DNA from: a virus | Taxonomy: Duplodnaviria; Heunggongvirae; Uroviricota; Caudoviricetes | DNA length: 39,194 nt | Virus record (IMG/VR): IMGVR_UViG_3300045391_007586 | Strand: one strand, 5' to 3' | Part shown: piece after piece, positions 9,496-27,300 of the stretch | How the letters are laid out: each line of letters opens with the position of its first letter | How positions within the stretch are numbered: position 1 is the stretch's first letter | Translations under genes and position numbers: made by a program | The notes under the pieces: generated by a model | What the model was told of the DNA's origin: nothing | Database searches by the model: none | The model's input: the letters and a program-made list of their open reading frames with translations, nothing else

Positions 9496-9775
9496 TCGGT
9501 TTCTCCTTGTAGACATACCGGACCTGAGTGACCACACGCTCGTGTGCAGCCGCCTTGTCCGCATCGACGGCAGCGCCCACCGCCGCCACTTTGTCCGCAA
9601 TCGCCTGGCTGACCTGGGTCGATTGGACGATTTCGTTGGCTGTTTCCTTCTGCGCCTTCACTACCTGGCTCACCTGAGCCGCCTTATCGTGGTCGCCTCG
9701 GACGTAAATACCGATGCCACATCCAATGACGACGGCGATGAGGCTCGCCGCCAGGATTTCCGAAATGGTGTTCAC
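9344..9775 (-). CDS. i-spanin (Rz-like)
   Basis: GTG overlaps the endolysin stop (GTGA) with AAGGAG RBS; N-terminal TM then helical domain with a late Cys. Confidence 0.8.
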   Translation of the reverse strand: MNTISEILAASLIAVVIGCGIGIYVRGDHDKAAQVSQVVKAQKETANEIVQSTQVSQAIADKVAAVGAAVDADKAAAHERVVTQVRYVYKEKPSEKDALECGPAYLDVGTVRLLNAAREGKAVRSTTGSDGASAAIAASSAAQ

Positions 9776-10398
9776 TTCGTCTCCTTGTCCATGAAGAGAT
9801 ACTTCTCGCGCCGGCTTGTCGGAGGCACCACATTCGCCACGTAGCCGCGGTTGATCTGGAAGAACGACTGGCCGTAACCCGACACCGCCGTCTTGGCCCG
9901 GAAGCTCGTGCGCTCGACGTTGCCAAACCACACGTTCGGATTGCACCCGCTCGTGTGCTCGCAAAGCGCCCTGTCCTTCAGGACGCCTCCGAGCCCGCCG
10001 TTATATGCGGAGAACATGAAGGCCATCCGGTCGGTATCGGTCGCGCCGAAGTGGATCGAGTGGTAGAGATTCCGGTCGTAGGCGACAAGCGCGCCGAGCT
10101 GCATTTTTGGGTTGAATCGGTCGCTCCACTGCCAGTTGGCAAGGGACTTGTCCCACGTCTTTGCAGCTTCGAAGTTGTTGAACTTCTTCGTGACCGTGAG
10201 CTGGCCGAGACCAAACCCGTATTCGCGGGCAGTCTTGAGCTCAGCCCGCGGGTTCCAGCATTTCGAGGATTGGAGCGTGACGCACGTCTCCTGCTCAACC
10301 TGGGCGGCAAGCATCGACGGCGTAGACATCGTGGGCCAAAGCGCCGTCACCTGCGCGAGCAGGACGGGAATGTAGACGGTCGCGAGCTTAGGAAGCAT
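9772..10398 (-). CDS. Endolysin, lytic transglycosylase (SLT-like)
   Basis: AAQVEQE (candidate catalytic Glu), GFGLGQLT and AYNGGLG motifs; sits between membrane genes and spanins. Confidence 0.85.
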   Translation of the reverse strand: MLPKLATVYIPVLLAQVTALWPTMSTPSMLAAQVEQETCVTLQSSKCWNPRAELKTAREYGFGLGQLTVTKKFNNFEAAKTWDKSLANWQWSDRFNPKMQLGALVAYDRNLYHSIHFGATDTDRMAFMFSAYNGGLGGVLKDRALCEHTSGCNPNVWFGNVERTSFRAKTAVSGYGQSFFQINRGYVANVVPPTSRREKYLFMDKETK

Positions 10399-11071: not shown

Positions 11072-11114
11072 ATCCTATGTCAAAAGCCGACGAATGTCAA
11101 TCAGCGATGACTGA
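11072..11114 (-). promoter_or_regulatory. Lysis-cassette promoter TTGACA-N17-TAGGAT with operator site 6 (11097-11114) at/upstream of -35
   Basis: -35 at 11095-11100, -10 at 11072-11077; site TCAATCA-GCGA-TGACTGA. Confidence 0.78.
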
Positions 11115-11117
11115 TAC

Positions 11118-12413
11118 TTAGATCGCCTTTATAGGAATCGTCTTTCGCAGCTTGGGCCGGCGAATATCTCCATCGATATGCACCATGATCTTGCCGGTGA
11201 GCCAATACAAGGCGCCGGACATGACCGCAGTGTTGAACTGAAATTCGTTCTCGCACGCCACATCAAATGCAGCACCTTCCTGATACATGCAGGCGCCGCC
11301 GCAAAGCTGGAGCACCGGGCAATGAGCGCAGTTCGGACGCTTGGACCAATGCCATGAGGTATCCACTGCGACCGACTCGAAGTCGCTTACATGGCCGACG
11401 CCGTGCTTACCCTTCGCGCCGACGTTCTGACATGTCATGACGTTGCCCTTCAGGTCAACCGCGAGCTGATCGGGCCGATCCATGCCGCACTTCTGCCACA
11501 GGGCGGTCGACGGCCGCTTCTGGCGCAGCGAGTCGATGAAGTTCGCCGCCTTGGCCGCAATCGTGTTGTCGTAGCCGCCAGGCGTGCGATTCACGAGCGC
11601 GTTGATGATGTTCCACTGGAGCTGCGAGTATTGCGCCTGCGTCCAGGTAGCGTCGTCTGTCCGGCCGTCCGAGTGCGGGTGAACGATACCCTCGAACGAC
11701 GCCATCACCGTCTCGCCGATCTTTTCGCTCAACCACTGCCGGGGCGAATCGATGTCGAGGTTTGCCGGCGTGATGACGGTGTTGAACGACATCATCCCCT
11801 TGCGGCCGATGCGTTGCCACAGCTTGCGCAGCATCGCGGCCTTCTCCGGGTCGTCGAATGGGTCCGGCCCGCGCAGGTGTTGCGCCTTCGCGTCGTGCGA
11901 TACGACGATGTAGATGTTGTGCCTGTCGATGAAGTCGATCTTCTCGTCGTCGAGCACGCTACCGTTCGTCACAACCAGCATGTGCGCATCCGGGAAGCGC
12001 TCGCGCATCGCCGGAATCAACACCTGCATGTGCTTCCAGTAGGCGAATGGCTCACCGCCCCAGAATTCGATCTTGTTTGGCTTGCTTTTGAGCCATGAGT
12101 CAAGATTTGCGAGGAAATCTTCCGCGTCCTTGACGTTCGAGACCGTTGCGTCTGGAATCTCCGACGACTGAAGGCAATAGGAGCACGCGTAGTTGCATTG
12201 CAGTCCGAGCTGGATTTTCAGGCGAACCGGCGCCCCGTGCTTCTTGCCGGGGCTGTCAGGCGAGATCGCGGTTGCGACCGGCCAGTTTCTCGCCTTCTCG
12301 TCGTAATCGAGCGGGACCGGGTTCCCGGCCTCGTCCGTCAGCGTGCTCGTGTGCGGGTCGTATAGGAGATATGAAACCGACCCATCCCCGCCCTGCATTG
12401 TCAGGCGATACAT
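11118..12413 (-). CDS. Radical SAM enzyme with SPASM domain
   Basis: CxxxCxxC (CNYACSYC), GGEP, VTNG, and SPASM-type cysteines CG...GNVMTC...CAHCPVLQLCGGAC...C. Confidence 0.93.
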   Translation of the reverse strand: MYRLTMQGGDGSVSYLLYDPHTSTLTDEAGNPVPLDYDEKARNWPVATAISPDSPGKKHGAPVRLKIQLGLQCNYACSYCLQSSEIPDATVSNVKDAEDFLANLDSWLKSKPNKIEFWGGEPFAYWKHMQVLIPAMRERFPDAHMLVVTNGSVLDDEKIDFIDRHNIYIVVSHDAKAQHLRGPDPFDDPEKAAMLRKLWQRIGRKGMMSFNTVITPANLDIDSPRQWLSEKIGETVMASFEGIVHPHSDGRTDDATWTQAQYSQLQWNIINALVNRTPGGYDNTIAAKAANFIDSLRQKRPSTALWQKCGMDRPDQLAVDLKGNVMTCQNVGAKGKHGVGHVSDFESVAVDTSWHWSKRPNCAHCPVLQLCGGACMYQEGAAFDVACENEFQFNTAVMSGALYWLTGKIMVHIDGDIRRPKLRKTIPIKAI

Positions 12414-13120
12414 TACTGGACACCTACCGTAACCGCGCCGACGCCCGAGTAATACCGGTAGCCAGCCTTGACAGTGATCGAATCGCCCGCGCTCAGGAGG
12501 TCGGCGCGGACCTGAACGGAGCCCTGCCCCTTGTCGTCGAGCTGGAGACGACGCTTGTTGAGATAGCCTGCCGAGGCTTTGAGCTCCAGCGAGACAGGGA
12601 GCGCCAGCGGAGCGCCGTCTTTGTCCGTGAGCTGCACGTCAATCGTCGCGACGCCATCCGGGGCGACGGTGGCAGGGCCGGTCAATTTCAGACTCGTGAA
12701 CTGCTTGCGCCATGCGCCCGAGTTCGGCTCGATTTCCGTGAGCGTCACGTTCGAGTCCACTTCATGCGCTGCGGTGAACAGCACATGACACTCGTCGAAC
12801 GACTTGACGTTCCGGTGCGGGACGAAAACCTGGATCAACAGCGAAGTGTTCAGGTCGCGTGCCACTTCGCTCAAGCTGCGCTTGCCCACCTGGCTGTGTG
12901 CGAAGACGTTTGCCACACCGGGTAGCATGACTCGACCGGGATCAACGACCGGGTTGAACCGGACGGCATAGAGGGTGAAGTCCCAAAAGTCGGCACGCGC
13001 CGCGATCTCCGCAAACGTCAGGCTTGTGGATTCATCGCCGATCGACATTTCGATCTTGTCGCTTGCATAGTTGACCTTCGACGGCAGGTCATGAGGAAAC
13101 GCTTTTGTGACAAAGTTCAT
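12413..13120 (-). CDS. Hypothetical protein with C-terminal Ig-like (Big/invasin-type) domain
   Basis: ATG 13120 with GGAG RBS; C-terminal beta-rich region (ATIDVQLTDKDG...GQGSVQV...ITVKA); stop overlaps the rSAM start (TAATG). Confidence 0.7.
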   Translation of the reverse strand: MNFVTKAFPHDLPSKVNYASDKIEMSIGDESTSLTFAEIAARADFWDFTLYAVRFNPVVDPGRVMLPGVANVFAHSQVGKRSLSEVARDLNTSLLIQVFVPHRNVKSFDECHVLFTAAHEVDSNVTLTEIEPNSGAWRKQFTSLKLTGPATVAPDGVATIDVQLTDKDGAPLALPVSLELKASAGYLNKRRLQLDDKGQGSVQVRADLLSAGDSITVKAGYRYYSGVGAVTVGVQ

Positions 13121-13168
13121 TCGATACTCCGAAAGTTGATCAGATTCTAAAGCCAAGCCGCCGAAATA

Positions 13169-13186
13169 TCAATCAACGTTGACTGA
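13169..13186. promoter_or_regulatory. Operator-like site 7 (TCAATCA-ACGT-TGACTGA)
   Basis: Within the last codons of fibre 3, upstream of the Ig-like/rSAM pair. Confidence 0.65.
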
Positions 13187-14356
13187 TAGTCCGGCCCAGG
13201 CAATCGACTCGTAGTCGAACGCGAACTCGTTCACGCGCGCACCTACGACATATCCGTTGACGATGATCGGGCTTCCTTCTGTCACGGGAAGGTAGAGTTG
13301 CGTATCGGGACCGTAGGACGGGTCAGCGACCACCGCTTGCCCCTTCCAGCCGTCAATGTGCGCGTATTCGAAGCCGTCGCCCACGAACATGCTGTAGTTG
13401 TCGCGAAGGCCGGCAAGGTGCCCGATTCGCACTTCGAAGCGCCACTGATCCGGGTTCGCGCACCACCACCATTCGTCGCCGTCCTGATCGCGCGCCCAGA
13501 GCATGTGCTCTTCGCTCCAGCTCAGAGAGCCGTCCGCGAACGTCATCATGCGTCGCTCGCCGAGGACTGGCCGATCGATGTCGACGACTTGCACGGGGCC
13601 ATACACGCCCATCACCATGTCGCCAATCTGCACGTCCTCGATGTTCTTCCAAGACCCGTCACCCATGAGGACTTGCGATCCTGCCGGAAAGCACGAGCAC
13701 GGGCATTGGCAATTGCAGTTGCAGTTGATAGCGTTCGGCCCGCGAGGTCCGGGAGGTCCGGGAGGGCCTGGAGGCCCGTAACCGCCTCCCGGACCCGTAG
13801 CGCCCTGATAGCCCGTTGGTCCGGTCGGCCCTGGGGCGCCGGTCGCCCCGGTAGGCCCTGTGGGGCCGGTCGGCCCAGGCTTCCCGATCTTGATTGCGCC
13901 AAGGTCGGTGCCATTCGCGAGCTGATAGCCAGTGACCGTCGCTGTGCCGTTGGATTGCAGCCCGCCGTTCGCGACGAGTTGGCCCGACATTGTGCCGCCC
14001 GACTTCATGATTCGAAGCGCAATGACGGCCTGCGCAAAGGCGGTCGTCGCGAGCTGCGAGTTGTTTGTCCCCACCGGCGCGGTCGGCCCCTTCGGGACTC
14101 CTGTGAATGCGGGCGAGTCAAGGTAAGCGGCAACGCGATTCAGGTCAAACGCCAGCGTCCAGGTTGCAGGAGAAGCGCTGGTCAGTTGGTAGAGCTGGAG
14201 CAAGTCCGTGCGAAGACAGAACATACCGACCACGAGATTCGTTGTCGGAAATGCCGTGCCTGCACTGGCAGACAACGCCGTGCTGTCGTTGTTCACCAGC
14301 TCGCCAATACTACCTTCGAGCGTTTCCGCGCTCGACACCATTGTGAAGTTTTGCAT
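13169..14356 (-). CDS. Tail fibre paralogue 3: fibre N-domain + collagen + CxCxCxCxCxC + Hint domain
   Basis: [27 protein letters not shown] fibre repeat; 17 GXY triplets (13733-13885); [11 protein letters not shown]; [21 protein letters not shown] and SEEH Hint motifs. Confidence 0.85.
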
Positions 14357-14362
14357 GTGACC

Positions 14363-15052
14363 TTAGCTGCAATAGACCGCGAATCCTGAAAGGGCTCCAG
14401 GCGGGCCTGGAGGCCCAGGTGGACCCGGAGGCCCAGGCGGACCCGGAGGTCCATAAGGGCCGGGCGCACCCGTCGGGCCACGCGCCCCGGTAGTCCCTGT
14501 GGGGCCGGTCGGACCTGCGGGGCCGACTGGACCTGTAGGTCCAACGATGAGCGCGCCCAAATCCGTCCCGTTTGCGATCTGGAAGCCGGTGACGGTGCCA
14601 CTAACGCCGCTCGATGCGCGGAAATTGCCGGCGCTCGCGGGTGCCGAACTCGTGATCAACCCCGAAACTGTGTCGGTCGTATTGGAGACGAGCAGCGCGA
14701 ATAGAGCCTGAATGAAAGCGGTTGTCGCAAGCTGGTTCGAGCTGTCGAATCCGGCCAGGTTGGAACCCGTCGTTGCGGTCGGAGCCTGCGGCGTTCCCGT
14801 AAATTCGGGCGAGTCCAGGTAGGCCATCAAGCCGCTCATGTCGAACGCGAGCTTCCACGTCGGCGCCAGGTCCGTCAGCTCGAACAGTTGGTTCAGGTCC
14901 GTTCGAAAGCAGAACATGCCCACTTGCAGGTTCGCGGTGGGGAATGCCGTTCCGGCGTTGCACGACAAGACGGTCTGGTCATTCTGAAGGAACAACGCCA
15001 GCGAGTCCTTCAGCTTCATGTCCGCGGTGACGGGCGTGTATTGCTGCGTCAT
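14363..15052 (-). CDS. Tail fibre paralogue 2: fibre N-domain + collagen, no Hint
   Basis: Same N-domain ([22 protein letters not shown]); 17 GXY triplets (14390-14542); ends SGFAVYCS. Start overlaps the paralogue 1 stop (ATGA). Confidence 0.85.
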
Positions 15053-16224
15053 GCCAATCCCTTCCAGTCGATTTTGCTGTAGTCGAATCCGGCCTCATTC
15101 ACGGATGCGCCGACCAGGTAGCCATTGACGATAATTGGCGGGCCATCAGTCACAGGAAGGTAGAGCGGCGTCTCGGCGCCCCAACCTTGCTCCACCACTA
15201 CCTTGCGCTCGACGAAACCGCTGACGTTCGCAAACAATACGTCGTCGCCGGAAAGCACGCTGTAGTTGTCCCTCAAGCCGCCCACCTGCCCTACCGCAAC
15301 CTCATAGCGCCATTGGTCGGGATTCGCTGACCACCACCACTGCTGATCGCCACGCTTGGCCCAAAAGCAGTGCTCTTCGCTCCAGAGCAGCGAACGATCG
15401 GAGAAGCCCATCATGCGGCGAGGCCCCAACGAAGTAACGTAAAGGTGCTTCACGCGCGCAGGGCCATCAACACTCATCACGAGGTCGCCCGCGCAGACGC
15501 GCTCGACAGCCTTTGTAGTCCCATCCGCCATGAGAACGGTCGCACCTGCGGGGAAGCAGCAGCAAGGGCATTGGCAAACGCAGTTGCAGTTCGACAGGCC
15601 GGAGACGCCAGTAGGCCCCGGAGGTCCAGGTGGCCCCGGAGGTCCGTATGGACCGGCGTAGCCAGTCGGACCAGTTGCGCCGGGTGCGCCGGGTGCGCCG
15701 GGTGCGCCCGTAGGTCCGGCCGGACCCGCTGGACCGGTCGGGCCTACGAGGACCGTGCCAAGGTCAGCACCGCTCGCGATCTTGAATCCGGTGTTTGTGA
15801 CGGATGTGCCGGCCGACTTGAATGATTGAGCTGTCAGCAGCCCATACATTGCGCCGCCCGTGCGCAGCAGCCCGAATGCGGCGACCGCCTGCGCGAACGC
15901 CGTCGTCGCGAGCTGGTTCGTGTTGATGTTCGATGCCGGGGTGGGCGCTGTCGGAATGCCGGTGAACGTCGGCGAGTTCAGGTAGGCGCGCGTGCGGTTG
16001 AAGTCGACGAGAAGAATCCAGCTTGGAGTCAGCGAGCCGTTTTGCACGGCATACTGATAGAGCTGAAGCAGGTCCGTGCGAAAACAGAACATCCCGACCT
16101 GAAGATTTTTCGTCGGGAACGACGTGCCCGCGCTGTTGGACATCGCGGTAAGGTCGTTGTTGGTCAGTTCCACCAACCCGTTCGCGATTGAGTCGCTAAG
16201 TTGGATGTTCGTGAATTTTTGCAT
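15049..16224 (-). CDS. Tail fibre paralogue 1: fibre N-domain + collagen + CxCxCxCxCxC + Hint domain
   Basis: [12 protein letters not shown]...QLATTAF repeat; 17 GXY triplets (15592-15744); [11 protein letters not shown]; [24 protein letters not shown] and SEEH. Confidence 0.85.
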
Positions 16225-16233
16225 GATCTGTTG

Positions 16234-16259
16234 TCACTCAGTGGTGACTGATTGTATCA
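16234..16259 (-). promoter_or_regulatory. Extended -10 promoter (TGn-TACAAT) with operator site 8 (16234-16251) upstream of the collagen-fibre genes
   Basis: Site TCACTCA-GTGG-TGACTGA. Confidence 0.65.
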
Positions 16260-16274
16260 CGCAACGCCAACAGC

Positions 16275-17801
16275 TTAGTAGCCGTGCGCCGCCCAACTGA
16301 TCGTGCCGGCGACGTTCTGGCCCGTTGTCGGATCGACGAGGATGACTGTGAATCCGGTGTTCGTCGGGGAGCCAACAAAGCGAGGAACCGCCAGCAAGTC
16401 CGTGCCGCCCTTCAATTGCAGGGTGATCTCGGGCACTTTGTGATACTTGCGGTTGAAAGTGACCGTGACACCGCTCGCGGCGTTCGTGATCGTCGCCTCG
16501 CCGCTATCATTCACGTCTGGCACGTCAACCGTAATACTCATGTCGGTCAGCACGCCGCGGTCGAGCGTGAACGACTGCACGACGGCGCGGAAAAGCGCCT
16601 TCTGGTAGGTGTATGTGCCAGTGATGAAGGGCTTGAAGTTCGAGTAGCCCGGAGGCGACGACGCCTGAATGAGCGCACGGAATGCGTCGTCATCGAGCGA
16701 ATCGGTCGTAATGGAGAGATTCGAGACCACGCCGTTACCGTGGCGTCGATATTCCTCCAGCAGGTTAAACGCTTCCGCCTGTGGAAGCGTCGTCGCCTTC
16801 GCGAGCGCATCCTTCGTCTTGAAACCTTCGCTTAGCAGACGAAGGTATTCCACCGTGCGGCCGAACAGCTCCGCCGTGGCAATCGCTTCGTCGATGCCAA
16901 GCGAAGCGTTCTTGACGATGAAGTCCTCGGTCGAGAAATTCTCGGCGAATGGCAGCTTGGTTGCCTGCGCATACTTCTCCAGCACCGATACCGCCTCACT
17001 CAACCTGTGAATGATCGAACGGGCGAGCGATTCGCCAACTTTGACACTCTCGTGCGGCCGAAGGCCATAGTCCTTATCGAAACCAGACTCGACAGCCGCG
17101 AACGCTTCAGCAAGCGGCAGCGTGAAGCTGTTTCCCTGGAGCTCCTGCGCCTTGATATGCTCAACGACGTGCAGGATCGACGAGGCAATGTGAGTGTAGG
17201 CTTCGGCCGTTCGCCACGATTCGGGAATCCCCTTCCCGAACCGCTTCAGGTAGTCGTCTGAAGCCTGAAAAAACTCAGCGAGGGCCTTCGACAGGTCGTT
17301 CCCATACTGATCGGCAATGGAGAAGCCGTCATGCAGGTGAAAGTCCTGCGCACGCGCCAGCGACTCGCCGACGACAATCGGCTCGTGCGGATTCTTTACG
17401 AACGAGCGCGTGACACCAACCTCGGCAGCGCTGAAGCTCTCGGCGAATGGCAGAATTGGGTGGTTGCCGTAGCGCTCAAGCGTGGAAATCGCCTCCGCGA
17501 TCTGCCGCACCTGATTGCGCAAAAGACTATCACTGACATGGATAGCCTCATGCGGGCGCAAGCCATAGTTGCGAACAGCCGCCTCAGCCGTCGAGAATTG
17601 CTCTGCAACGGGCTTTGTTGTCGCCTTACCGAGGCGTTCGACGTTAGTCCACCCCTCGGTCGTGCTGACCGTGTAGTTCGAGTCGTAGGACGTGTTCCAC
17701 GACTTCTGCCCTCGATAATCCGTCCAGCCAAAACCACTCCCGGCCCACGTGTAGTAAGGGCCGGGAGTGTTCTGGACGCTGACTGTCGTTGGTGTAGTCA
17801 C
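16275..17801 (-). CDS. Putative tail-associated protein with internal repeats and C-terminal beta-sandwich
   Basis: Lies in the tail module; repeated PHExxxVx(D/E)SLxR units; C-terminus VTVTFNRKY..VPEI...TGFTV...ISWAAHGY resembles fibre-tip (H-type lectin-like) folds. Confidence 0.6.
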   Translation of the reverse strand: MTTPTTVSVQNTPGPYYTWAGSGFGWTDYRGQKSWNTSYDSNYTVSTTEGWTNVERLGKATTKPVAEQFSTAEAAVRNYGLRPHEAIHVSDSLLRNQVRQIAEAISTLERYGNHPILPFAESFSAAEVGVTRSFVKNPHEPIVVGESLARAQDFHLHDGFSIADQYGNDLSKALAEFFQASDDYLKRFGKGIPESWRTAEAYTHIASSILHVVEHIKAQELQGNSFTLPLAEAFAAVESGFDKDYGLRPHESVKVGESLARSIIHRLSEAVSVLEKYAQATKLPFAENFSTEDFIVKNASLGIDEAIATAELFGRTVEYLRLLSEGFKTKDALAKATTLPQAEAFNLLEEYRRHGNGVVSNLSITTDSLDDDAFRALIQASSPPGYSNFKPFITGTYTYQKALFRAVVQSFTLDRGVLTDMSITVDVPDVNDSGEATITNAASGVTVTFNRKYHKVPEITLQLKGGTDLLAVPRFVGSPTNTGFTVILVDPTTGQNVAGTISWAAHGY

Positions 17802-18336: not shown

Positions 18337-21300
18337 TTAATAGAGAGCCACCGTTGTGAAGGCTCCCTGCGGCAGCAGGCTCTCGGTGTCCGAGTTGACC
18401 TGCTGGCCGTCCATCGAACCGACGAAGATGCTGCGCGTCGCTTGTCCTTGGTTGATCGCCACAAGGTATTGAATTCCGGTCGTCAGAACGAACGGCACAT
18501 ATTGGCGATACGCCTTCCCGTCTTCGAGATAGAACGCCTGCTTTTGAGCCGAGTAGCCAACACGCAGTAGCGCGCCATTAGCGCCGGTCAATGTCAGAAA
18601 GATGCAATCGGCAATCTCTTGCGGCGCAACCCAGAACGAGGTCGAGAAGACGGACGGCACGTTCACAGCCCACTTCACGAACGTCGTGTCGACGACATCG
18701 ACGCCCTGCCCGAAGCGGCCCTTTCCGTAGCTAACGCCGAGGGACTGCGTAGGCTGATCGCCCTGCAATCCCTGCAACGTTCCATTGAGCCCAAAACCGT
18801 CGACATCGTTCGGTTGAACGCCCTGGAACAAAGAAATCTGGGCGAACCCGTTCATGTTCGTCAGCGTCCCGGACGGGAGCCAACTTTGCCCCGCCTGCGC
18901 ATCGCCCCACGTGAAGTCGGCGCTATCCCATGTCAGCCCCGTCTTCACGGCGGCGTTCAAGCCGACCGAGACGGTGTTGTTCGCCGTGAACGTATCCCCG
19001 AGGTCCACCGCCATCATGTATTCGCCCTGCGTCACGCCGTCGTCCATGACGAGTTCGCCATCTTCGACCGTGAAGCCGAAGGCGGTGTCGGGGAAATTGT
19101 TCTGCGCCGCATCATCGACATAGACGACGTTGGTATTCGACGGCTGCGCGACGACGGCAGTCGAGAATACCGGCGTGTCACCATAGATGCCCGGTGATGC
19201 AACTGCCTTGATCCAGAATGTCGGCTGGCCGGAATACCCAGACGGCATCGTGTAGGTCGTCGCTTTGACCTGCGTTACTAGAATCGATGTGTTCCACGTC
19301 AACCCTTGGCGAATCTCGTAATACTCGATGTTGTCTTCCGGGTTCTTGTTCCAGACGAACACGAGGGATTGATACGACTGATTTACATCGAATCCCGTCA
19401 CCGCAACCGGCGCGTTCAGAGTGACGCCCACCTCCGCGGCACTCGTGGAATAAATCTTGGCGGTATTGATCGCCTTGATCCAATACTGCTTCTGCCCTGC
19501 GGTCGATTCGTGCGCCGAGAACGAAGTGCCCTGATAGTTCGTCACCAGAACTGTGCCGTCATCCCAATTGACCCCTTCCCGAATCTCGTAACCGGCAAGG
19601 TCGACTTCGGTGTTCGGCGACCACTGAAGCAGAATGTCCGACACGCGAACGGTCAAGGTGAAGTCCGCCACCTGAGCGGGCGGCAGCAGTTGCCCTTGAA
19701 CGGTATAGGTAATCTGCGGCGCGAGCCCGTATGGAGCTTTTGCCCCGACGACATCCTGCGCCTGCACCTTGAAAGTGACTACCTGGCCCTGGTTCAGGTC
19801 GATCGTGGCCCGGTCGTATGCCTTGTCGGTCAGCAGTTGCCACGCCCCGCCGTCCACACTCGTATAGACGGACGAGTTCGCGTAGGTGCTCTGCGCCGAC
19901 GAGAACGACACCGTGACATGGCTGCGGAAGTTGTTGCCCGTCCGGTAGAGCTCTTCGGTCACGCCGGCAATCGTCGCCTGCTTGACGGTCGGATCGAGCG
20001 CAGAATAGTCCGGCTCCGGGGCCGCGCTCGCGCCGGAAAGATCGTAGATCGACGGGTTGTATTCGATCGCCGTGATGTCGCGCCGGTAGTCGGTCGTGCC
20101 GCTGATTGCCGTGACGCGGAACGGCTTGCCATACTTCCCGACCGAGCCAAACATCCAGTTCTGGAACTGTGCGGGCGCGGCCGGCAGTGGCGACTGGAGC
20201 GTGAGCTGCGTGTTGCCGGTCTGCCCGTTGTTCACGACGCCGACCGTGATCATGCAGTCGGTGTCGTAGAGCTGGTAGGTATATCCGTTCTGGAATGGCG
20301 CGGTCGAATCGACCATGACGCCCCACAGGCCGGCATTGTTGTAATGCGTGCCCGTGACCTCGAAGTCCCCGATCAGCGCACCGCCTTGATATGCCCAGAT
20401 GCGGCGCACGCGCTGAACACCGTCGAACCCAGACAGCCAGAGCACGTTGCCCGACATGCCGACGATCGTCCCGGCGTAGCGTTGCAGGCTATCCCACAGA
20501 ACCATGAGCTGATATTGCAGCCCCGGCGTCATATCAACCGGGCGGTCGAGCTGCACGACAGTCTGCGTCGAGCCCGCAGCGAAACGACCGCCATAGCCCC
20601 AATCCGGCATGTCGTGCTGCACGAGAATCACATCGCCGACCGTGCAGGCGACTGCTTCGAGCGGCGCACCGAACTGGATCGTCTGAGTGACGTAGCGGTT
20701 CAGGTTGAGCTGGAACAGCGCTTCCTGATACGCGCGCTGATAGTCGACAATGCCGATCAACTGAATCTGCGCAGTCTTGGGCGCGCGGCCAGCGACGATC
20801 GCGGACGGGTCATAAACCCGAACACGATGCTCCTTGTAGTGGTCGGTCTGGTCGTAATATGCGACCTCGATCTCGTTTGCGCGGTCGGTGATGCTCGACC
20901 ACGACTCCTGGAAGGAGCCCTCGATGATGTTCGCCACCGAGAACATCATGACCGGATCGGCCGGCCCTTCGATCGCGATCGTGTAGCGGGTGCCAGCATT
21001 CACAAGCTGCCCATGCCCGACACGCAGCACAATCTGAAGCGCATCCCAGAGGCTCTGCTGCTGATCGATGACGCCGTTGAACGTCAGCCCTTCGGCGTTG
21101 CAGAAATCTGCCCACCGCTTGAACGCGTCCAGGTCGAGCCGCGACGGGTCCATGCCGCCGCCGTATCGCGTGTTCGTCATCATGTCCCAGACGATCCACG
21201 CGGGGTTATTCCAATTGCTGTAAACCCATTGCGGAACATCCGACCAGGACACGTCCACGTAGCCCCAAATCAGCTTGCCGTGGTTGAGGTAGGTGACGTT

Positions 21301-22830
21301 CGGGATCGATGAGAGCTGATTGGTAAGCAGCACTTGCACCGCCACGAGAGCGGTGTTGTTGTAGCCAACCGAGCCGTAGGTGATCTCGTTGATGTCCGAG
21401 ACCGACACGATGTCCATCGTGTATTGATCCGACAACGCGGCCACGTTCGACGTGCGTCGCATGCGGATGTTATACATCCCGGTCGGAACCTGCTGCGACC
21501 AGACAGACATGCGCACCGCCGAGCGGTTGTTGTCCGAAATCTGGATCACGCCCGAGTAGCGCGGAATCTGCATCGACGCGCGATTGCCCCACACGTTGAT
21601 GCCGACGTAGTTCCGATTGATCGTATCGAGGTCTTGCTGGCTCACCGGCCCGTAATTCGGGTTGCCCGTGGAGTCGCTGTAATACCAGTTGTAGGTCGGC
21701 GGAACTTCGGTGTATTGCCACCCCCAAGGGCCATTCGTTTCGACGACATACATATTCGACGTGTCGTCGTAATAAAGGTAGTTGGCCGGAGGCGTGATCG
21801 TTGCCCACACCCACTGCATCGTCTCGATGGTTGTCGTGGGCGTCACCGATTGCCAGGCGCCCGTCCCGAGCGGTGCGAACTGCATTTCCATTTGGACGGA
21901 AATGCCGCTGGAACTGCCACTGTTCTTGTCGACGTGGTAGAGACCGTCCGGCGCCACGACGTCCACGCGGAACGCATCAATCGGCCCCTGGGTCGTGTAG
22001 TAGACCCATTCCGTCGTCAGAGTCTCGTTGAAACTGAACGGCGCGATGTTCTGTGAGAATCCGGGCAGCGGTTGCTGCTGCGGATTTCCCGGCAACGTCC
22101 ACACGTTGACGTTCTGGTAGAGCGTGTAGTCGTTGAAGTCGAACTGAACGTCCGTAATGCCAGCGATCGGCCCCTCGCCGGCCGCAATCAGCATGTGCAG
22201 GATTTGTGTCGCGTAGCCCTGTGGATCGGTCGCGCCGTTATCCACATACATATCGATGATGTTGCCGGCCATGCGAACGGTCCCGTAAACAACCGGGACC
22301 GGCGTGTTTTCGAGCGACGTGTTCTTTGCGCCGTCGATACCGTAGGTTGGCGACGTTTTGCCCTGATCCGTGTTGGCTTTGGGCGCGGGAAGAAGCGCAT
22401 TAACGAGCAGCGTGCCCGCGATCGTCACGGCCATCGAGGCGGCAACGCCAGCAGCGGCGCCCGCTACAGTGCCGAAGCCGCCGTATGCCGCAGCAGCAGC
22501 GCCGCCCGTGTAGACGGACGCCACAGCAACCGCGATCATTGCGATGATGCGGAAAATCCCCTTGCCGCCGCCACCACCGCCTTGTGGGACGGGACAAAGC
22601 ACGATGTTGTCTGTCGGTGCCAGATACGTCACCGGGAAGTTATCCGGCTCGACGACCTTGCCATTGATCGAGACAACGTGCTCGATTGACCCTGCCGGAA
22701 AATAATCGGCAAGCGTGAAGTCGCCGACCCATTCAATCTCTTCGCGAACGTGCTCGCGAGGATTGAACGGGTTGACGATACGAATGACGGGAATCTTACT
22801 GGACGGCTTGAGCGCTACGAGGTCCGACAT
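18337..22830 (-). CDS. Central tail fibre / host-specificity protein (lambda J-like, I-like N-terminus)
   Basis: About 1500 aa; Gly/Ala-rich TM-like segment then PVPVVYG; FN3-like repeats (LQWSPN.E.DLAGYEIR, FVWNKN..NIEYYEIR). Start ATG 22830 (TTG 22845 possible). Confidence 0.88.
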   Translation of the reverse strand: MSDLVALKPSSKIPVIRIVNPFNPREHVREEIEWVGDFTLADYFPAGSIEHVVSINGKVVEPDNFPVTYLAPTDNIVLCPVPQGGGGGGKGIFRIIAMIAVAVASVYTGGAAAAAYGGFGTVAGAAAGVAASMAVTIAGTLLVNALLPAPKANTDQGKTSPTYGIDGAKNTSLENTPVPVVYGTVRMAGNIIDMYVDNGATDPQGYATQILHMLIAAGEGPIAGITDVQFDFNDYTLYQNVNVWTLPGNPQQQPLPGFSQNIAPFSFNETLTTEWVYYTTQGPIDAFRVDVVAPDGLYHVDKNSGSSSGISVQMEMQFAPLGTGAWQSVTPTTTIETMQWVWATITPPANYLYYDDTSNMYVVETNGPWGWQYTEVPPTYNWYYSDSTGNPNYGPVSQQDLDTINRNYVGINVWGNRASMQIPRYSGVIQISDNNRSAVRMSVWSQQVPTGMYNIRMRRTSNVAALSDQYTMDIVSVSDINEITYGSVGYNNTALVAVQVLLTNQLSSIPNVTYLNHGKLIWGYVDVSWSDVPQWVYSNWNNPAWIVWDMMTNTRYGGGMDPSRLDLDAFKRWADFCNAEGLTFNGVIDQQQSLWDALQIVLRVGHGQLVNAGTRYTIAIEGPADPVMMFSVANIIEGSFQESWSSITDRANEIEVAYYDQTDHYKEHRVRVYDPSAIVAGRAPKTAQIQLIGIVDYQRAYQEALFQLNLNRYVTQTIQFGAPLEAVACTVGDVILVQHDMPDWGYGGRFAAGSTQTVVQLDRPVDMTPGLQYQLMVLWDSLQRYAGTIVGMSGNVLWLSGFDGVQRVRRIWAYQGGALIGDFEVTGTHYNNAGLWGVMVDSTAPFQNGYTYQLYDTDCMITVGVVNNGQTGNTQLTLQSPLPAAPAQFQNWMFGSVGKYGKPFRVTAISGTTDYRRDITAIEYNPSIYDLSGASAAPEPDYSALDPTVKQATIAGVTEELYRTGNNFRSHVTVSFSSAQSTYANSSVYTSVDGGAWQLLTDKAYDRATIDLNQGQVVTFKVQAQDVVGAKAPYGLAPQITYTVQGQLLPPAQVADFTLTVRVSDILLQWSPNTEVDLAGYEIREGVNWDDGTVLVTNYQGTSFSAHESTAGQKQYWIKAINTAKIYSTSAAEVGVTLNAPVAVTGFDVNQSYQSLVFVWNKNPEDNIEYYEIRQGLTWNTSILVTQVKATTYTMPSGYSGQPTFWIKAVASPGIYGDTPVFSTAVVAQPSNTNVVYVDDAAQNNFPDTAFGFTVEDGELVMDDGVTQGEYMMAVDLGDTFTANNTVSVGLNAAVKTGLTWDSADFTWGDAQAGQSWLPSGTLTNMNGFAQISLFQGVQPNDVDGFGLNGTLQGLQGDQPTQSLGVSYGKGRFGQGVDVVDTTFVKWAVNVPSVFSTSFWVAPQEIADCIFLTLTGANGALLRVGYSAQKQAFYLEDGKAYRQYVPFVLTTGIQYLVAINQGQATRSIFVGSMDGQQVNSDTESLLPQGAFTTVALY

Positions 22831-23194
22831 ACTTATAGAATCCAACGAGACGAAGTTTCCAATTCGCGATCGGCTCGACGAGAACCCCGCCGCTGCGCTC
22901 CCATGAATGGATCATTCGGTATCGGTCAAGCATGTAGCCCACATGCGAGACATACCGGCCAATACGAAAAAGCGCGACAGCGCCGCGATCGCATTTCGTC
23001 TCTTCCCACTGAGGCAGGGCCTCGCCGACCAGCGCCGCAACAACTCCTTGATCGGAGTGCGCACCGAAGTCGGGAATCACAATGCCGTCACGCCTCGACA
23101 TTTCCATGACGAGCCCGTAACAGTCGAACGAGTCAGGACCACGCCCGCGCACCTTGAACGGAACGCCGATGAGGTCTACGTGGTTAGCCGGCAT
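22796..23194 (-). CDS. NlpC/P60 tail-tip protein (lambda K-like)
   Basis: GRGPDSFDCYGLV and SHVG catalytic motifs; true start ATG 23194. Confidence 0.88.
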   Translation of the reverse strand: MPANHVDLIGVPFKVRGRGPDSFDCYGLVMEMSRRDGIVIPDFGAHSDQGVVAALVGEALPQWEETKCDRGAVALFRIGRYVSHVGYMLDRYRMIHSWERSGGVLVEPIANWKLRLVGFYKYVGPRSAQAVQ

Positions 23195-23906: not shown

Positions 23907-24302
23907 TCACGCTTCCTGAACCTGATAGCTGACATCCCATAGCTGCGTCGTGCCCACACCGACGTAGCGGAATTTCAGCGAGCCACCCACAAACCGAACC
24001 TGATACACCTGCTTGTCCTGCGGGCACGTCCAATCAAAGATGACCGAACCACCCATGACGGATTCGTAAAAATTCGCCAGCGTTTGCCGATCGGCGTCAG
24101 AGATCGACGTGTAGCCACTCGACCAGGTGCGGCGTGGCGGTCGCGTAAACTTCGCACGCGAGACCACGTAGCCGCCATCCATCTTCGTCTGTAGCGACGG
24201 GTCTTCATATTCGAGCGCGAACTTGGACGAGTCCTCGCCCGTCGACATCTTTGTCGTAACCGCCTCCGCGGTCACGATATTCGGAAATACCGGGTTAGCC
24301 AT
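23907..24302 (-). CDS. Distal tail protein (lambda M-like)
   Basis: Directly after the tape measure (TGATG overlap); MDGGY...R, FDWTCP pattern. Confidence 0.75.
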   Translation of the reverse strand: MANPVFPNIVTAEAVTTKMSTGEDSSKFALEYEDPSLQTKMDGGYVVSRAKFTRPPRRTWSSGYTSISDADRQTLANFYESVMGGSVIFDWTCPQDKQVYQVRFVGGSLKFRYVGVGTTQLWDVSYQVQEA

Positions 24303-27300
24303 CAGCTTACTGCTCCACGAAGGTTGTCACGGAAGGTGCCAGGCGTGGTCGCCGCATTCAGCACAACATCGAGGATTGCCTGACGGCCATCCCACCGGAC
24401 GTTGCCCTGCTGCGCGCTGACCTGCTGGCCGGTCTGATTGATCACGTTCACGTTCACATTCGGCGCGGCCCCGCCACTCTGCGAGGACGAACCGCCGCCC
24501 TTCATCGTGACAGGAATGCTGCGGCCGTCCGGCAGTGGCACATATGCCTCTGCCATCGAACCTTCGCCGAAAAGTGCGAGTTGCGGGCTGTCCGCGATGC
24601 CCCCGTTGGCATACTTGCGCAGCGAGACCTCGCCGAACTCGGTCATGATCCCGCCGTTCGCGAACGCTGTCAGGTCCATGCCGGCGCTCGTGCCGAACAG
24701 ACCGCCAGAGCCGCCAATATCAGCCATCGTCCCGGTTGTGGAAAAGCCGTAGTCACCGGCACTGCTGCCGCCGCCAAACAGGCCACCAAACAGGCCACCC
24801 AAACCGCCGCCGCCACCACCACCGCCACCCATCGATTGCAGCGCTGCCGCCGCTTCCTGCGCTGCCGAAGCCAGGGTTTGAAGGCCGGTCGTCGCCTCTG
24901 CGGATGCCGCCGTTTCAGTCGCGCTCTTCGCCGCCTGATCGCCAAGCGAAAACACGTTCTTGGCGACCTGTGAGCCGAACTGCGTCAGACTGCTCGTCGT
25001 CTGCTGCACCGCCGCAGTGATGCCGGACGCAGCAGTGCCACCGGGTCCGACCAGCGTGCTTCCGAACCCCATCAGCGCGGACGTGCCTTGCGTCGCCAGC
25101 GCGCCAACACCGGCCGGCAATGTGAACTGCGGGCCATTAGCGGCAGGAGTTGTGTCGCCCGTTACATAGTTCTTGACCAGATTACCGAGTCCGCCAAAGA
25201 GGCTCTTCATCGGGTCCGCGAGCGCCTTCTGCATGCTGTCCCGAAGCACATCCATGCCGATCGACTCAACGAACTGCTGCCATTGGAATTTGCCGGTCTT
25301 GACGAAGTTCATGAACGTGTCCATGAACTGATTCGACCAGGCAACTTCCTGCTGGTCGATTTCGTCGTCGGTGTCCTTCCACTTCTTCACCATTTCGTCG
25401 AGCGGCGTCTCCATATCCTTCTGGTATTGACGCCACAACGTCTTCATGTGGTCGGCGAACGCCTGCGCGTTTGCCTGACGGGTCGTGTAATACTCCTGCT
25501 CGATCTGGGCAAGGCGCGCTTGCTTCGCCTCGTCCGTCAGGTCGCTGTTCGACTGGATGTCGAACGACTCGGACGCGAACGTGGCATCGAGGTTGCTCTG
25601 ACGCGCCTCGTATTCCTTCTCCTGGGTATTGAGCGTGTTCTGATACTTGCGCTCCGTCTTGGCCCGCTTGGTATTTGCCTGCTCGTCGTCAAGCTGGTCG
25701 TTGGCGTCCTTGTCCTTGCTGCGCAGGTCGGCGCTGTAGGTGGACAGGTCAGTGCGCGCCTGTTCGAACAACGCAGCATCCTTCTGCATGCTCCAGTCGG
25801 CGAACGCCTTCGTGCCCGATTGCAGACGCTCTTCTGCACGGGCCATTTCCTTTTCGAGCGCCGTGAACGCCGCAGTCTGCTTCGTCAGGTTGCCGCTCGT
25901 CAGACGGCTGAGTGCGTCATTCGCGGTCGTTTCCGACGCCGCGACGCGTTCATTCGCGAAGGTCAGCGCCTTCTTCTGTTCAGCGTATTGCTCGACCGCC
26001 GCCTTGGCCTGCACCCAGGCTTGCACGTCCGGCGCCTGCTCGTTGAGCGTGCCGTCTGCATTCTTCCAACGACGCTTGCTCGGATCGTGCCCGATGTCGA
26101 AGTCGCCGCCAGCCCACTTGGCTTTGAACTCGTTCATGGCTTGCGTCAGGAACGAGTCTGAGTCCGGCGTGCGCGTGAGCAGCGACGCGAGACTGTCTAC
26201 GTCGTTGAGCTTCGCCGCCGTGAGCTCGGCGAGCGACTTCTTATACGGGTCTTCGTAAGCGGTTCGCTTCTTGCGACCGCCCGAGTCGTCGTCGAGAAGC
26301 GCCTGCATGCCCTTGCCAGGCAGCGAGCTAGAATCCGGCACTGTGGGCGTTTGCGTATGCGGCGCACCAATACCCATGCGGGCCATTTCCCGCGCGTCAG
26401 ACGTGGGGTCTTGCTGCGACGCCTGCTTGCCAAGGTAGAGCGCTTCGTCGCGCTGCCACTTCTTTTCGGCATCGGAGCGCTCTACCTTCGTCTGCGCCTG
26501 CGCGTTGGCGATGACGTTCGCGTCCGGGATGGGCACCATCGAGCCGTCCGCGCTTTGAACCCATTTCACGCCCTGTCCGGTGAACATTCCCTTCAGCGTG
26601 TCCTTGAACACCTGAACGAACGTCTTCGCCTTGTCGACGAGGCCGCTGAACCAATGGTCGAGCCATTCGTCGATGCTGTGACCGCCAACTTCAAGACTGC
26701 CGATCAGCTTCGTCAAGTCCCAAGCCAGCATCAGTTCGCCGACAAGCGGAATGGCGCGCAGGACGGCCTTGCCCATCAGGCCGAACGCTTCCACAACAGT
26801 GTTCGTCAGAGCTCCAAGCGAGCTGACGAGCAGTGGCGCAAACTTGTTTCCAAGTTGCAGAATCCATTCGCCAATCGAGGTCAGGATCGGCAACTTGAAG
26901 GCGCCAAAGAACGAGGCGACGCCGGTCGTCTCCGCGCCGAGCGCCGCCGCACCCTCTGCGGCAGTCTTGGTTGCGGTGCCAAACCCGGCCATTGCCGAAA
27001 TGAGCTTGCTGAAGCTGCCGAAAGCGCCAGTGACGCCCGCAATAGCGAGCTTGATGCCGCCCAATGCCGCGCCGACCGCGGTGATCTGCGTGATGAACGG
27101 ATGGTTGGCGGCAATCTCATTCATCGTCGCCAACAGCTTGTTCAGCTCGGTCAGGACGCCAGTGATGGCCGGCGCAAGATCGCCACCGACAGTCCGGGCG
27201 AGGTCGCCAAGCTGCTTCTGCGTTTGCGCCCACTGACCGTTCATCTGCTGCATCCGGTCAGCCTGCACCTGATCGGCGCCCGCCGCATCCGTAATCGTGC

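Follow-up and report, generated by a model that had tools for sequence, protein, structure and literature searches.

The closest precedents for the system described here are QhpD/QhpC and CrpC/CrpA. In the first, which serves the maturation of quinohemoprotein amine dehydrogenase, a radical SAM (rSAM) enzyme of the SPASM type introduces Cys-to-Asp and Cys-to-Glu thioethers into a protein subunit (PMC13692751). In the second, from Methanococcus voltae, a SPASM rSAM enzyme that also has seven cysteines (CrpC) adjoins a Cys-rich, full-length protein (CrpA), on which it has been shown to install ranthionine crosslinks; the modification is like that of RiPPs but falls on a protein instead of a peptide (PMC13692751). 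SPASM domains are defined by the motif Cx9-15Gx4C ... Cx2Cx5Cx3C ... C and hold two auxiliary clusters; auxiliary cluster I (Aux I) is fully ligated in anSME, by C255, C261, C276, and C330, whereas in CteB it has an open site that binds a cysteine of the substrate (PMC6231123).

The locus studied here lies in a stretch of 39,194 nucleotides (the window) from a provirus, which also contains a second cassette of the same kind. An earlier reading made from the letters alone (the sequence-only reading) had described five consecutive, co-oriented genes, i.e., three fibre paralogues, an Ig-like partner and an rSAM/SPASM enzyme, and the ORFs confirmed this arrangement on the minus strand. Direct inspection also showed the two gene overlaps that it had reported, ATGA at the junction of fibres 1 and 2 and TAATG at that of the partner and the rSAM gene. 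Its placement of the genes inside the tail module agrees with their neighbours, which are a tape measure protein (24302-29545) and the central fibre J (18337-22845) on one side and an endolysin (9772-10398) on the other. The features are as follows:

11097..11115, no strand assigned: palindrome copy, ATCAGTCA-N4-TGAnTGA, just beyond the rSAM stop codon
11118-12413, minus strand: rSAM/SPASM enzyme, 431 aa (Pfam, NCBIfam and PHROG scans)
12413-13120, minus strand: partner, 235 aa from the ATG at 13120 (listed TTG start, 13156)
13169..13187, no strand assigned: second palindrome copy, overlapping the fibre 3 stop codon
13169-14356, minus strand: fibre 3, 395 aa (ORF)
13172..13693, minus strand: Hint module of fibre 3 (alignment A3, profile search of solved structures)
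13694..13726, minus strand: Cys run of fibre 3, residues 211-221, immediately before Hint Cys1 at residue 222 (translation, alignment)
14363-15052, minus strand: fibre 2, 229 aa (ORF)
15049-16224, minus strand: fibre 1, 391 aa (ORF)
15052..15558, minus strand: Hint module of fibre 1, Cys1...SEEH (alignment A3, intein profile matches)
15559..15591, minus strand: Cys run of fibre 1, residues 212-222, immediately before Hint Cys1 at residue 223 (translation, alignment)
16234..16252, no strand assigned: third palindrome copy, 9 nt upstream of the fibre 1 start codon

For the partner, the ATG at 13120, which has GGAG upstream, is the more likely start. The three palindromes had been taken for operator sites. 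They are present, but copies of this element are spread over 14 sites in the window (27 strand-matches, where 0.25 would be expected) and about 30 in the whole 109-kb record; because it is found genome-wide, it is not specific to the fibre operon, and no support for the proposed operator role was found.

All three fibres contain collagen triple-helix repeats, scoring 38.3 (fibre 1), 37.0 (fibre 2) and 31.9 bits (fibre 3) against a PF01391 cut-off of 27.2. In fibres 1 and 3 an N-terminal anchor domain and the collagen repeats are followed by a Cys run and a C-terminal Hint module, just as the sequence-only reading had it. Fibre 2 has the same anchor and collagen repeats without the Cys run or the Hint module, and this counts against the explanation that we favour below. 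Fibre 1 is 53-56% identical to fibres 2 and 3, and its anchor is common to fibres of phages JWF and 2-1 (alignment A6); in the PHROG scan the fibres matched tail-fibre families. Both Cys runs are of the N-C-x-C type, 11 residues long, and lead directly into Cys1-FPAG.

The Hint family PF05203 (cut-off 32.1) was matched above threshold by fibre 3 (35.3) and below it by fibre 1 (27.3), where Hint families cover residues 222-270. Alignment A3 showed C1, F2, G5, D12 and H63 (the block-B His) to be invariant; in the block-B TxxH motif the Thr is replaced by Ser in the window fibres, at a position that varies among relatives. A profile of the module aligned Cys1 with residue 1 of the PI-SceI intein (E 1.6e-7), and searches of the PDB matched the PI-SceI, Prp8 and gp41-1 inteins, all aligned at Cys1. 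On these comparisons, the modules can be assigned to the Hint/intein superfamily. A true intein, i.e., one capable of protein splicing, was rejected, since the protein ends with the Hint module; with no C-extein, only N-terminal cleavage should be possible. The anatomy is that of Hedgehog-type Hint and bacterial intein-like (BIL) domains, with a C-terminal Hint, Cys1 and the block-B His and no C-terminal extein or homing endonuclease, and thus predicts cleavage of the bond before Cys1. We think that self-cleavage is likely: an N-to-S acyl shift at Cys1 and subsequent hydrolysis would free the Hint domain of fibres 1 and 3, so that the mature proteins would end with the Cys tail, as most relatives already do. 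The thioester at this junction might instead be captured by a nucleophile, such as a tail cysteine, an amine of the partner or a neighbouring chain, so that the tail became cyclised or ligated at its C-terminus. This is improbable; if true, rSAM crosslinking and Hedgehog-like acyl transfer would together give a covalently locked fibre end, a virion chemistry without precedent.

The fifth gene product, a member of phrog_1802, proved to be the rSAM/SPASM enzyme that had been proposed. It exceeded the cut-offs of both PF04055 (37.8 vs 29.5) and TIGR04085, the SPASM model (33.7 vs 27); its CxxxCxxC motif (C73-x3-C77-x2-C80) was invariant in alignments A1 and A5, and its seven SPASM cysteines (C309, C328, C362, C365, C371, C375 and C387) were invariant in 31 sequences. 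The first SPASM spacing is 18 residues, slightly above the canonical range. The best full-length NCBIfam match was the PapB ranthipeptide maturase (NF047865), with enzyme residues 65-378 aligned to profile positions 5-319 of 330; at 66.2 bits against an equivalog cut-off of 340, PapB is the closest family, yet the enzyme lies outside it. The QhpD model (TIGR03906) matched the N-terminal half only (E 5e-12; score 45 vs a cut-off of 453), and anSME (TIGR03942) gave 38 bits against 349. All curated maturase models thus scored far under their cut-offs, and the chemistry is therefore not transferable by family membership. Both anSME and CteB aligned over the full length of the enzyme, about equally well. 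The seven-cysteine pattern of the clade is like that of the thioether-forming CteB, with its open Aux I, and unlike that of anSME (PMC6231123); no Cys was aligned at the position of anSME Cys261. Membership of the anSME family was rejected on this ground, on the low score, and because no sulfatase gene or motif was found nearby.

The sequence-only reading had supposed that this rSAM clade would co-occur with Cys-tipped fibre genes, rather than being found mostly without them, and the association was seen in both directions. Among 132 loci with a full-length rSAM relative, 96 had an upstream, co-oriented ORF with a (C-x)>=3-C run, the background being 10 such runs per 1.14 million aa of all other ORF space. 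After removal of near-duplicates, an upstream co-oriented (Asn/Asp-Cys)n gene was present at no fewer than 62 of the 74 loci with enough upstream DNA, and several of those remaining negative have variant tails. About 10% of loci with enough flanking DNA had no tail gene, and two bacterial rSAM relatives had no fibre whatsoever. Conversely, when we took real ORFs ending in NCNCNCNC from viral contigs with at least 3.5 kb of downstream DNA, the rSAM gene lay downstream of about 22 of 23. The cassette occurs in unrelated phage types, including the siphoviruses JWF and 2-1 and the 168-kb Ackermannviridae phage RSP15, as well as in a 608-kb contig and in prophages from several phyla. The bodies of the substrates vary while the tail is constant: only 29 loci have the anchor domain, and tail proteins reach about 700 aa in relatives.

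The overall best explanation, to which we assign a probability of roughly 60%, is that this is a phage cassette for the maturation of tail-fibre proteins. Its target would be a short C-terminal (N/D-C)n tail, with n = 3-10, on proteins of the tail-fibre or receptor-binding type, and its enzyme the dedicated rSAM/SPASM protein encoded just downstream. We regard it as very likely, given the coupling in the sequences, that the Cys-rich tail is the rSAM substrate. In the mechanism that we favour, a tail cysteine would be bound at the open iron site of Aux I, a hydrogen atom would be abstracted from the neighbouring Asn or Asp, and the Cys sulfur would then be joined to that carbon, giving a ranthionine-type thioether like those formed by PapB, NxxcB, QhpD and CrpC. 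Carried out at one cysteine after another, the reaction would make the tail a rigid covalent ladder, resistant to reduction and to proteolysis. We give even odds to a thioether as the product.

Support for it is indirect, from the seven-cysteine pattern, from PapB being the best match and from the residues next to the cysteines. In addition, the nearest bacterial relatives are encoded behind a nitroreductase-YcaO fusion, which belongs to peptide-modification machinery. In the (XC)n tails, X is Asn in 56%, Asp in 12%, Ala in 12% and Gln in 4%. NxxcB, PapB and QhpD are reported to use Asn and Asp as acceptors, and the strong preference beside each Cys fits these known thioether acceptors. NCNC can also be read as a repeated NxxC, the NxxcB motif. 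Less probably, the enzyme would act on the same tail by chemistry other than intrachain thioether formation, e.g., anSME-type oxidation that yields formylglycine from Cys, epimerisation, formation of C-C or C-O bonds, or crosslinking of the three chains of the trimer, the last being an enzymatic counterpart of the collagen cystine knot formed in a reducing cytoplasm. The full-length anSME alignment (E 8e-18 with profile A5) and the depositors' naming of the JWF protein after anSME point this way, and SPASM enzymes do catalyze many reaction types, with sequence similarity a poor predictor of function within the subfamily (PMC6231123). The collagen repeats of the window fibres run straight into the tail, a sensible place for a trimer staple, but most tail proteins are without collagen. 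In addition to the acceptor preference, the seven-cysteine pattern lacking the Cys261 ligand argues against these alternatives, as does the absence from the tails of any sulfatase-type C/S-x-P/A-x-R motif. On balance we consider these other reactions unlikely.

A very unlikely reading is that the tail is a metal-binding, iron-sulfur-binding or disulfide-forming fibre element, to which the rSAM enzyme is linked only indirectly, modifying the partner or a host surface molecule or serving cluster handling. There are HxH iron sites in T4 gp37, and cysteines alternating along a β-strand would present all their thiols on one face, an arrangement suited to binding metal within a trimer. In Pam3, disulfides anchor the fibres (PMC9942802), and modified CrpA is itself suspected of binding metal (PMC13692751). 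However, this reading leaves unexplained why, whether the analysis starts from the enzyme or from the tail, the two go together in phages of unrelated types and on unrelated fibre bodies. In addition, some cassettes have the tail and the rSAM gene but no partner. Metal binding and enzymatic modification of the tail are mutually compatible.

The Cys run formed the natural C-terminus in 85 of 115 non-redundant tail proteins, with 37 ending exactly on Cys, and only seven of the 115 matched the Hint filter. That the tail is naturally C-terminal in most relatives supports Hint cleavage exposing the run in the window fibres. That the tail is also the distal or receptor-contacting end of the fibre we suggest only tentatively. 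One provirus fibre with the same N-terminal anchor carries an end like that of Peptidase S74 instead (L166:6216-7403).

Could the cassette be non-virion cargo, making a Cys-rich peptide or protein that is secreted or stays in the cell, for instance a signalling or bacteriocin-like RiPP, with the fibre features incidental? A few loci do encode small Cys-tailed proteins of about 80 aa, at times two or three in a row, and the bacterial relatives L084 and L085 are found in a YcaO cluster. However, the window substrates share their tail-fibre anchor with the JWF, 2-1 and S74-capped fibres and have collagen and PHROG tail-fibre matches, in both the window and JWF the cassette has central fibre J on one side and the lysis genes on the other, and no transporter or leader protease was found nearby. 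We consider this alternative highly improbable. Membership of a RiPP system was rejected: the substrates are fibre proteins of 229-395 aa, and no RiPP recognition element (RRE) or other PqqD/RRE family match was detected in the rSAM enzyme or the partner. Since the substrate would be a whole structural protein, the fibre-maturation cassette is best termed RiPP-like rather than RiPP, and on its sequence features this likeness would be in enzymology only.

The partner had no match in the Pfam, NCBIfam or PHROG scans, but its AlphaFold2 model (pLDDT 87) upheld the earlier suggestion of an Ig-like fold. Residues 142-235 superposed on Ig domains of GH2 enzymes, intimin and invasin (Z 11-12.5, rmsd 1.9-2.3 Å, about 90 residues) and are predicted to form a bacterial Ig-like domain of the intimin/invasin type. 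The N-domain was compared with the 'shoulder' of receptor-binding proteins and the SPP1 gp22-like fold; its best match, SPP1 gp22 (2xc8; Z 5.4, rmsd 3.7 Å, 95 residues), and the next, phage 1358 and p2 receptor-binding proteins and TssK (Z 2.6-3.6), were all too weak to trust. Members of the partner family occur in 100 of the 132 loci, nearly always upstream of the rSAM gene; the second cassette of the same provirus has none, and in JWF an unrelated protein occupies its position. As a third component the partner is common but not required, and it more probably belongs to the virion or the fibre end than serves as a subunit or helper of the enzyme.

We found no publication describing an rSAM enzyme paired with Cys-tipped phage fibres, a pairing that recurs in hundreds of phages and suggests chemical modification of tail-fibre ends in many of them. 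Among known fibre caps, Peptidase S74 chaperone domains resemble the window Hint modules in being self-removing and C-terminal on a trimeric fibre, but they have another fold and another catalytic mechanism, and we know of no modifying enzyme associated with them. Unlike Hedgehog and BIL domains, the window Hint modules sit on a phage fibre directly after a Cys-rich tail, and they have no sterol-recognition region. PapB, NxxcB and CteB modify short peptides that bear a leader and leave the cell as natural products, whereas the putative substrates here are structural proteins of 200-700 aa and the enzyme is far from PapB (66 vs 340). QhpD makes three defined crosslinks in one enzyme subunit, which it recognizes via a leader and an RRE. 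CrpC/CrpA is archaeal and cellular, with an RRE in CrpC, other motifs in CrpA and no link to a virion or a Hint domain; in the window system the enzyme has no detectable RRE, and the candidate motif for modification is the (N/D-C)n tail with which tail fibres end.

The five genes described by the sequence-only reading lie consecutively and in one orientation among the ORFs of the window, all on the minus strand, and the ATGA and TAATG overlaps that it placed at two junctions are both real in the sequence. The genes of the block are as follows:

15049-16224, minus strand: fibre 1, with anchor, collagen, Cys run and Hint module
14363-15052, minus strand: fibre 2, with anchor and collagen, ending shortly past the collagen
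13169-14356, minus strand: fibre 3, with anchor, collagen, Cys run and Hint module
12413-13156 as listed (TTG start at 13156), minus strand: Ig-like partner, the fourth gene of the block
11118-12413, minus strand: rSAM/SPASM enzyme, 431 residues, the fifth gene of the block

The block is flanked upstream by a tape measure protein and central fibre J and downstream by holin-like genes and an endolysin, which agrees with the claim that it lies inside the tail module. The gene layout around the cassette is the same in Achromobacter phage JWF, and the nearest named homologues belong to Burkholderiales (e.g., Herbaspirillum, Ramlibacter and Polaromonas). Between a small fibre-like gene and fibre 1 there is a 508-aa protein (16275-17801, minus strand) that had no PHROG match and has visible internal repeats of ~45 residues (LPFAExFSxxE…GLRPHE…).

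Fibres 1, 2 and 3 are mutually 53-56% identical, i.e., paralogues, and all three have collagen repeats above the Pfam cut-off and many PHROG tail-fibre matches. They share an N-terminal domain of ~75 residues with the fibres of JWF and of a second Achromobacter phage, 2-1, and with another fibre of the same provirus; the domain behaves like an anchor fixing exchangeable fibres to the tail. A product of the cassette that resides outside the virion appears very improbable. The expected endings of two of the fibres were borne out for fibres 1 and 3, in which the collagen is followed by a Cys run, then by Cys-FPAG..VLM.DG, and then by ~170 more residues. Fibre 2, whose gene overlaps that of fibre 1 at the ATGA, has neither a Cys run nor a Hint module. 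The paralogues may assemble as three separate homotrimers or as a single heterotrimeric collagen-like fibre. The other fibre of the provirus that has this anchor (L166:6216-7403) combines the window-type N-terminal domain with a C-terminus like the self-cleaving S74 intramolecular chaperone (…DPRLKEDVEPI…), so that one anchor occurs with two different self-removing caps.

The Hint module matches PI-SceI, Prp8 and gp41-1 inteins by profile, with Cys1, the first Hint residue directly after the run, falling on intein residue 1 (E 1.6e-7); PF05203 was over its cut-off in fibre 3 and slightly under it in fibre 1. Eight tails with a Hint cap, taken from the window and from other loci, show no variation in Cys1, in an F..G...M.D block and in one His; this His lies within SEEH, TGGH or AGAH, the equivalent of the block B TxxH. 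Because the protein ends where the Hint module ends, splicing is impossible, but by analogy with Hedgehog and bacterial intein-like domains the module can support cleavage of the bond before Cys1.

A megablast search of the phage collection with the 5.1-kb region gave no match, and relatives were found solely by protein-level searches. Using tblastn, full-length relatives of the enzyme were found in JWF, 2-1 and Ralstonia phage RSP15. In JWF and 2-1, a fibre with the window-type anchor and no collagen is encoded two genes upstream of the enzyme, and ends ...NCNCDCNCNCS followed by Cys1-FPAGT and a Hint module. RSP15 is an unrelated 168-kb Ackermannviridae phage, in which the "side tail fiber" encoded upstream has the ending ...NTNCQCGN and lacks a Hint module, and the gene after it encodes a homologue of the Ig-like partner.

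An alignment scan of the collections for the enzyme yielded 403 viral contigs, of which 80 matches were inspected, and ~50 bacterial genomes; the clade comprises at least 2,173 protein clusters. At 96 of 132 loci with a full-length relative, three or more C-x repeats were present in an ORF lying upstream in the same orientation, ORFs being taken from stop codon to stop codon with no gene calling. The background was 10 such runs in 1.14 million residues of the remaining ORF space of the same loci, most of them on the opposite strand of the same DNA. The sequence-only reading had suggested searching for co-occurrence of this rSAM clade with Cys-run fibre genes; the two are coupled, with a tail gene at 62 of the 74 loci that remained after removal of near-duplicates and had at least 2.5 kb of upstream sequence. 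Some loci that failed the filter carry variant tails, which are Hint-capped (L005 and L029), interrupted (L037, L042 and L099) or located downstream of the rSAM (L130). In the reverse direction, viral contigs were scanned for DNA encoding NCNCNCNC, restricted to ORFs of at least 60 residues with at least 3.5 kb downstream, and 80 of at least 120 matches were inspected. The enzyme lay downstream in ~22 of 23 real ORFs ending in NCNCNCNC; the matches lacking an enzyme were tiny simple-repeat ORFs. A second cassette also occurs in the same provirus, outside the window (L166:7400-9780; G000:C1, ~33.4-35.8 kb). Its 331-aa protein is extremely Asn/Cys-rich and ends NCNCNCDCACCC, then F-VAGS and a Hint module; an rSAM/SPASM protein 36% identical to the window's directly follows it, with no Ig-like partner between.

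The bodies of the tail proteins vary, with the anchor in 29 loci and lengths from ~80 to ~700 residues, and the tail is constant. This is the pattern expected if tail and enzyme form a functional pair moving between fibre scaffolds. That the tail is instead a metal-binding or disulfide element, to which the enzyme is linked indirectly, seems improbable.

Three further sets of loci were observed. L026:3643-7329 is a multi-substrate cassette encoding, in this order, an Ig-like partner, a Hint-capped 275-aa Cys-rich protein, two ~80-aa proteins ending NCHCNCNCQC and NCNCNCNCNCNG, and an rSAM; its three tail proteins have a common N-terminal motif, MAxKxxGxVVxDDxGxI, that could be an attachment or recognition element. 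At L176, L184, L228 and L244, ORFs of 67-82 aa end …HTHIFYDDYST-ACNCNCNCNC-SRGIL, with a far more distant rSAM (25% identity) 5-7 kb downstream; these could represent a distinct branch of this theme. L085:3357-5696 and L084:2496-4511, from a Variovorax and a proteobacterial MAG, encode an rSAM 46-48% identical to the window's in a non-phage chromosomal setting, behind a nitroreductase-YcaO fusion (PF02624, ~137 bits), with GroEL nearby in L084. They are probably cellular peptide-modification clusters related to the phage clade, which would thus have kin in classical clusters of that kind.

In 115 non-redundant tail proteins the repeat number was 3 to 10, and the positions preceding each Cys were occupied by Asn (56%), Asp (12%), Ala (12%) and Gln (4%). 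The run lay no more than 8 residues from the natural C-terminus in 85 of the 115, and Cys was the final residue in 37. A Hint filter matched seven of these proteins, and inspection revealed further Hint-capped variants. Hint-capped tails are a scattered minority, and their rSAMs are only 34-46% identical to that of the window. Because the run normally is the C-terminus, the simplest reading of the sequences is that Hint self-cleavage would return it to that position.

The identification of the fifth gene as rSAM/SPASM was upheld: PF04055 and the SPASM model TIGR04085 were both over their cut-offs, and the CxxxCxxC motif and seven C-terminal cysteines of the SPASM pattern are invariant in 31 diverse relatives. 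The enzyme falls into phrog_1802 (E 1.7e-51), a phage family whose sole annotation is "radical SAM domain protein", and clade proteins carry only generic names in the source databases. It reached none of the curated maturase families; the best full-length family match was PapB (66 bits, versus a cut-off of 340), and the anSME model gave 38 bits versus 349. The solved structures aligning over its full length are anSME and CteB. In anSME the Aux I ligands are C255, C261, C276 and C330, and the sactisynthase CteB is a seven-cysteine enzyme in which a substrate cysteine is bound at an open site of Aux I (PMC6231123). CrpC, the SPASM enzyme recently shown to crosslink a whole protein, CrpA, is likewise a seven-cysteine enzyme (PMC13692751). 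In the alignment to anSME and CteB, no cysteine of the clade falls on anSME Cys261. Having seven cysteines as in CteB and CrpC and no equivalent of Cys261, the window's enzyme follows the pattern of thioether formers, which is suggestive, not decisive.

From the genomic coupling, we infer that the enzyme modifies the (N/D-C)n tail. The likeliest product would be a series of Cys-to-Asn or Cys-to-Asp thioethers (ranthionines), given that Asn and Asp are preferred before Cys, that PapB is the nearest family and that the enzyme has the seven-cysteine pattern; some other reaction on this tail is less likely. In the window's fibres, Hint cleavage would leave the modified tail as the C-terminus, as suggested by the catalytic residues of the Hint module and by where the tail lies in relatives. 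Both the chemistry and the cleavage are inferred. Modification may precede or follow cleavage, the links may lie within or between chains, and the tail may be the receptor-contacting tip.

The partner had no family match in Pfam, NCBIfam or PHROG. Its start is probably the ATG at 13120 and not the listed TTG at 13156, because there is a GGAG 7 nt upstream and homologue alignments begin there. In an AlphaFold2 model built with 41 homologues (pLDDT 87), residues 142-235 are predicted to form an Ig-like sandwich that superposes on Ig domains of intimin, invasin and GH2 at Z 11-12.5, in keeping with its earlier description as Ig-like. The N-domain folded alone (pLDDT 79) gave weak matches to SPP1 gp22, lactococcal phage receptor-binding proteins, TssK and tail fibres (Z no higher than 5.4), which hint at a virion protein but are too weak to rely on. 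With this domain, a protein atlas search gave weak unnamed phage clusters (best score 0.82, within the chance range), and BFVD gave uncharacterised phage proteins only. A predicted complex of rSAM and partner scored 0.12 versus a mark of 0.32, which counts neither for nor against binding. The partner family occurs in 100 of the 132 loci, almost always upstream of the enzyme. JWF gp029, encoded where the partner would be expected, was rejected as a member (hhalign probability 0.4%). In RSP15 an extra 276-aa protein of unassigned family (ORF046, L001:8159-8989), with relatives in 8 examined loci, lies between partner and rSAM.

Operator sites had been proposed at 16234, 13169 and 11097. Palindromes are present there, but they are genome-wide and so not specific to the operon:

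Window 1600, 6606, 7907, 9171, 11097, 13169 and 16234: palindrome ATCAGTCA-N4-TGAnTGA, ~19 nt each
Window 17809, 18311, 23881, 30274, 34914, 35953 and 38632: further copies of the same palindrome

Lying at gene boundaries and having a 4-nt spacer, they gave 27 strand-matches in the window versus 0.25 expected, and ~30 sites in the 109-kb record. Two of the copies overlap hexamers that resemble -35/-10 elements. A promoter with overlapping operator was rejected as a general explanation, since other copies end 9-14 nt ahead of a start codon; the palindrome could be an intercistronic RNA hairpin or a site for a phage regulator.

The range of hosts to which a phage attaches is decided by its tail-fibre ends, which are usually regarded as plain folded protein that in some cases gains stability from metal ions or from self-cleaving chaperone domains. 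If our reading is correct, a large, widely distributed group of phages (over 400 viral contigs and at least 2,173 protein clusters, with cultured Achromobacter and Ralstonia phages among them) rewrites the chemistry of the fibre terminus with a natural-product-type radical enzyme. This would be the first case of a viral structural protein crosslinked enzymatically in RiPP-like fashion, and would build on the very recent result that SPASM enzymes can act on whole proteins. A function would be gained for phrog_1802, a common phage protein of unassigned role, and Hint domains would have a further, novel use. The reading would also bear on prediction and engineering of receptor-binding proteins, because a fibre transferred to a new phage without its enzyme might not mature. 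Searches of open-access papers and bioRxiv gave no account of an rSAM paired with Cys-tailed fibres of phages, and the CrpC paper (PMC13692751) does not mention phages; within the open-access literature, the pairing thus appears undescribed. The enzyme class and protein thioether crosslinking are already known; what is new is the virion fibre as substrate, its C-terminal (N/D-C)n tail, the cap formed by Hint and the distribution across phages.

The description of the system as RiPP-like stands as regards enzymology. Strictly speaking it falls outside the RiPP systems, because the substrates would be structural proteins and we detected no RRE in enzyme or partner and no leader protease or exporter in the surroundings of the cassette. 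Closest in enzymology are CrpC/CrpA and QhpD/QhpC, in which SPASM enzymes crosslink whole proteins; PapB, NxxcB and CteB are also close, but act on peptides. The window's enzyme is a member of none of the curated CrpC, QhpD, PapB, NxxcB or CteB families. As a self-removing cap, the Hint module is similar in logic to the S74 chaperone domains of other fibres but differs from them in fold.
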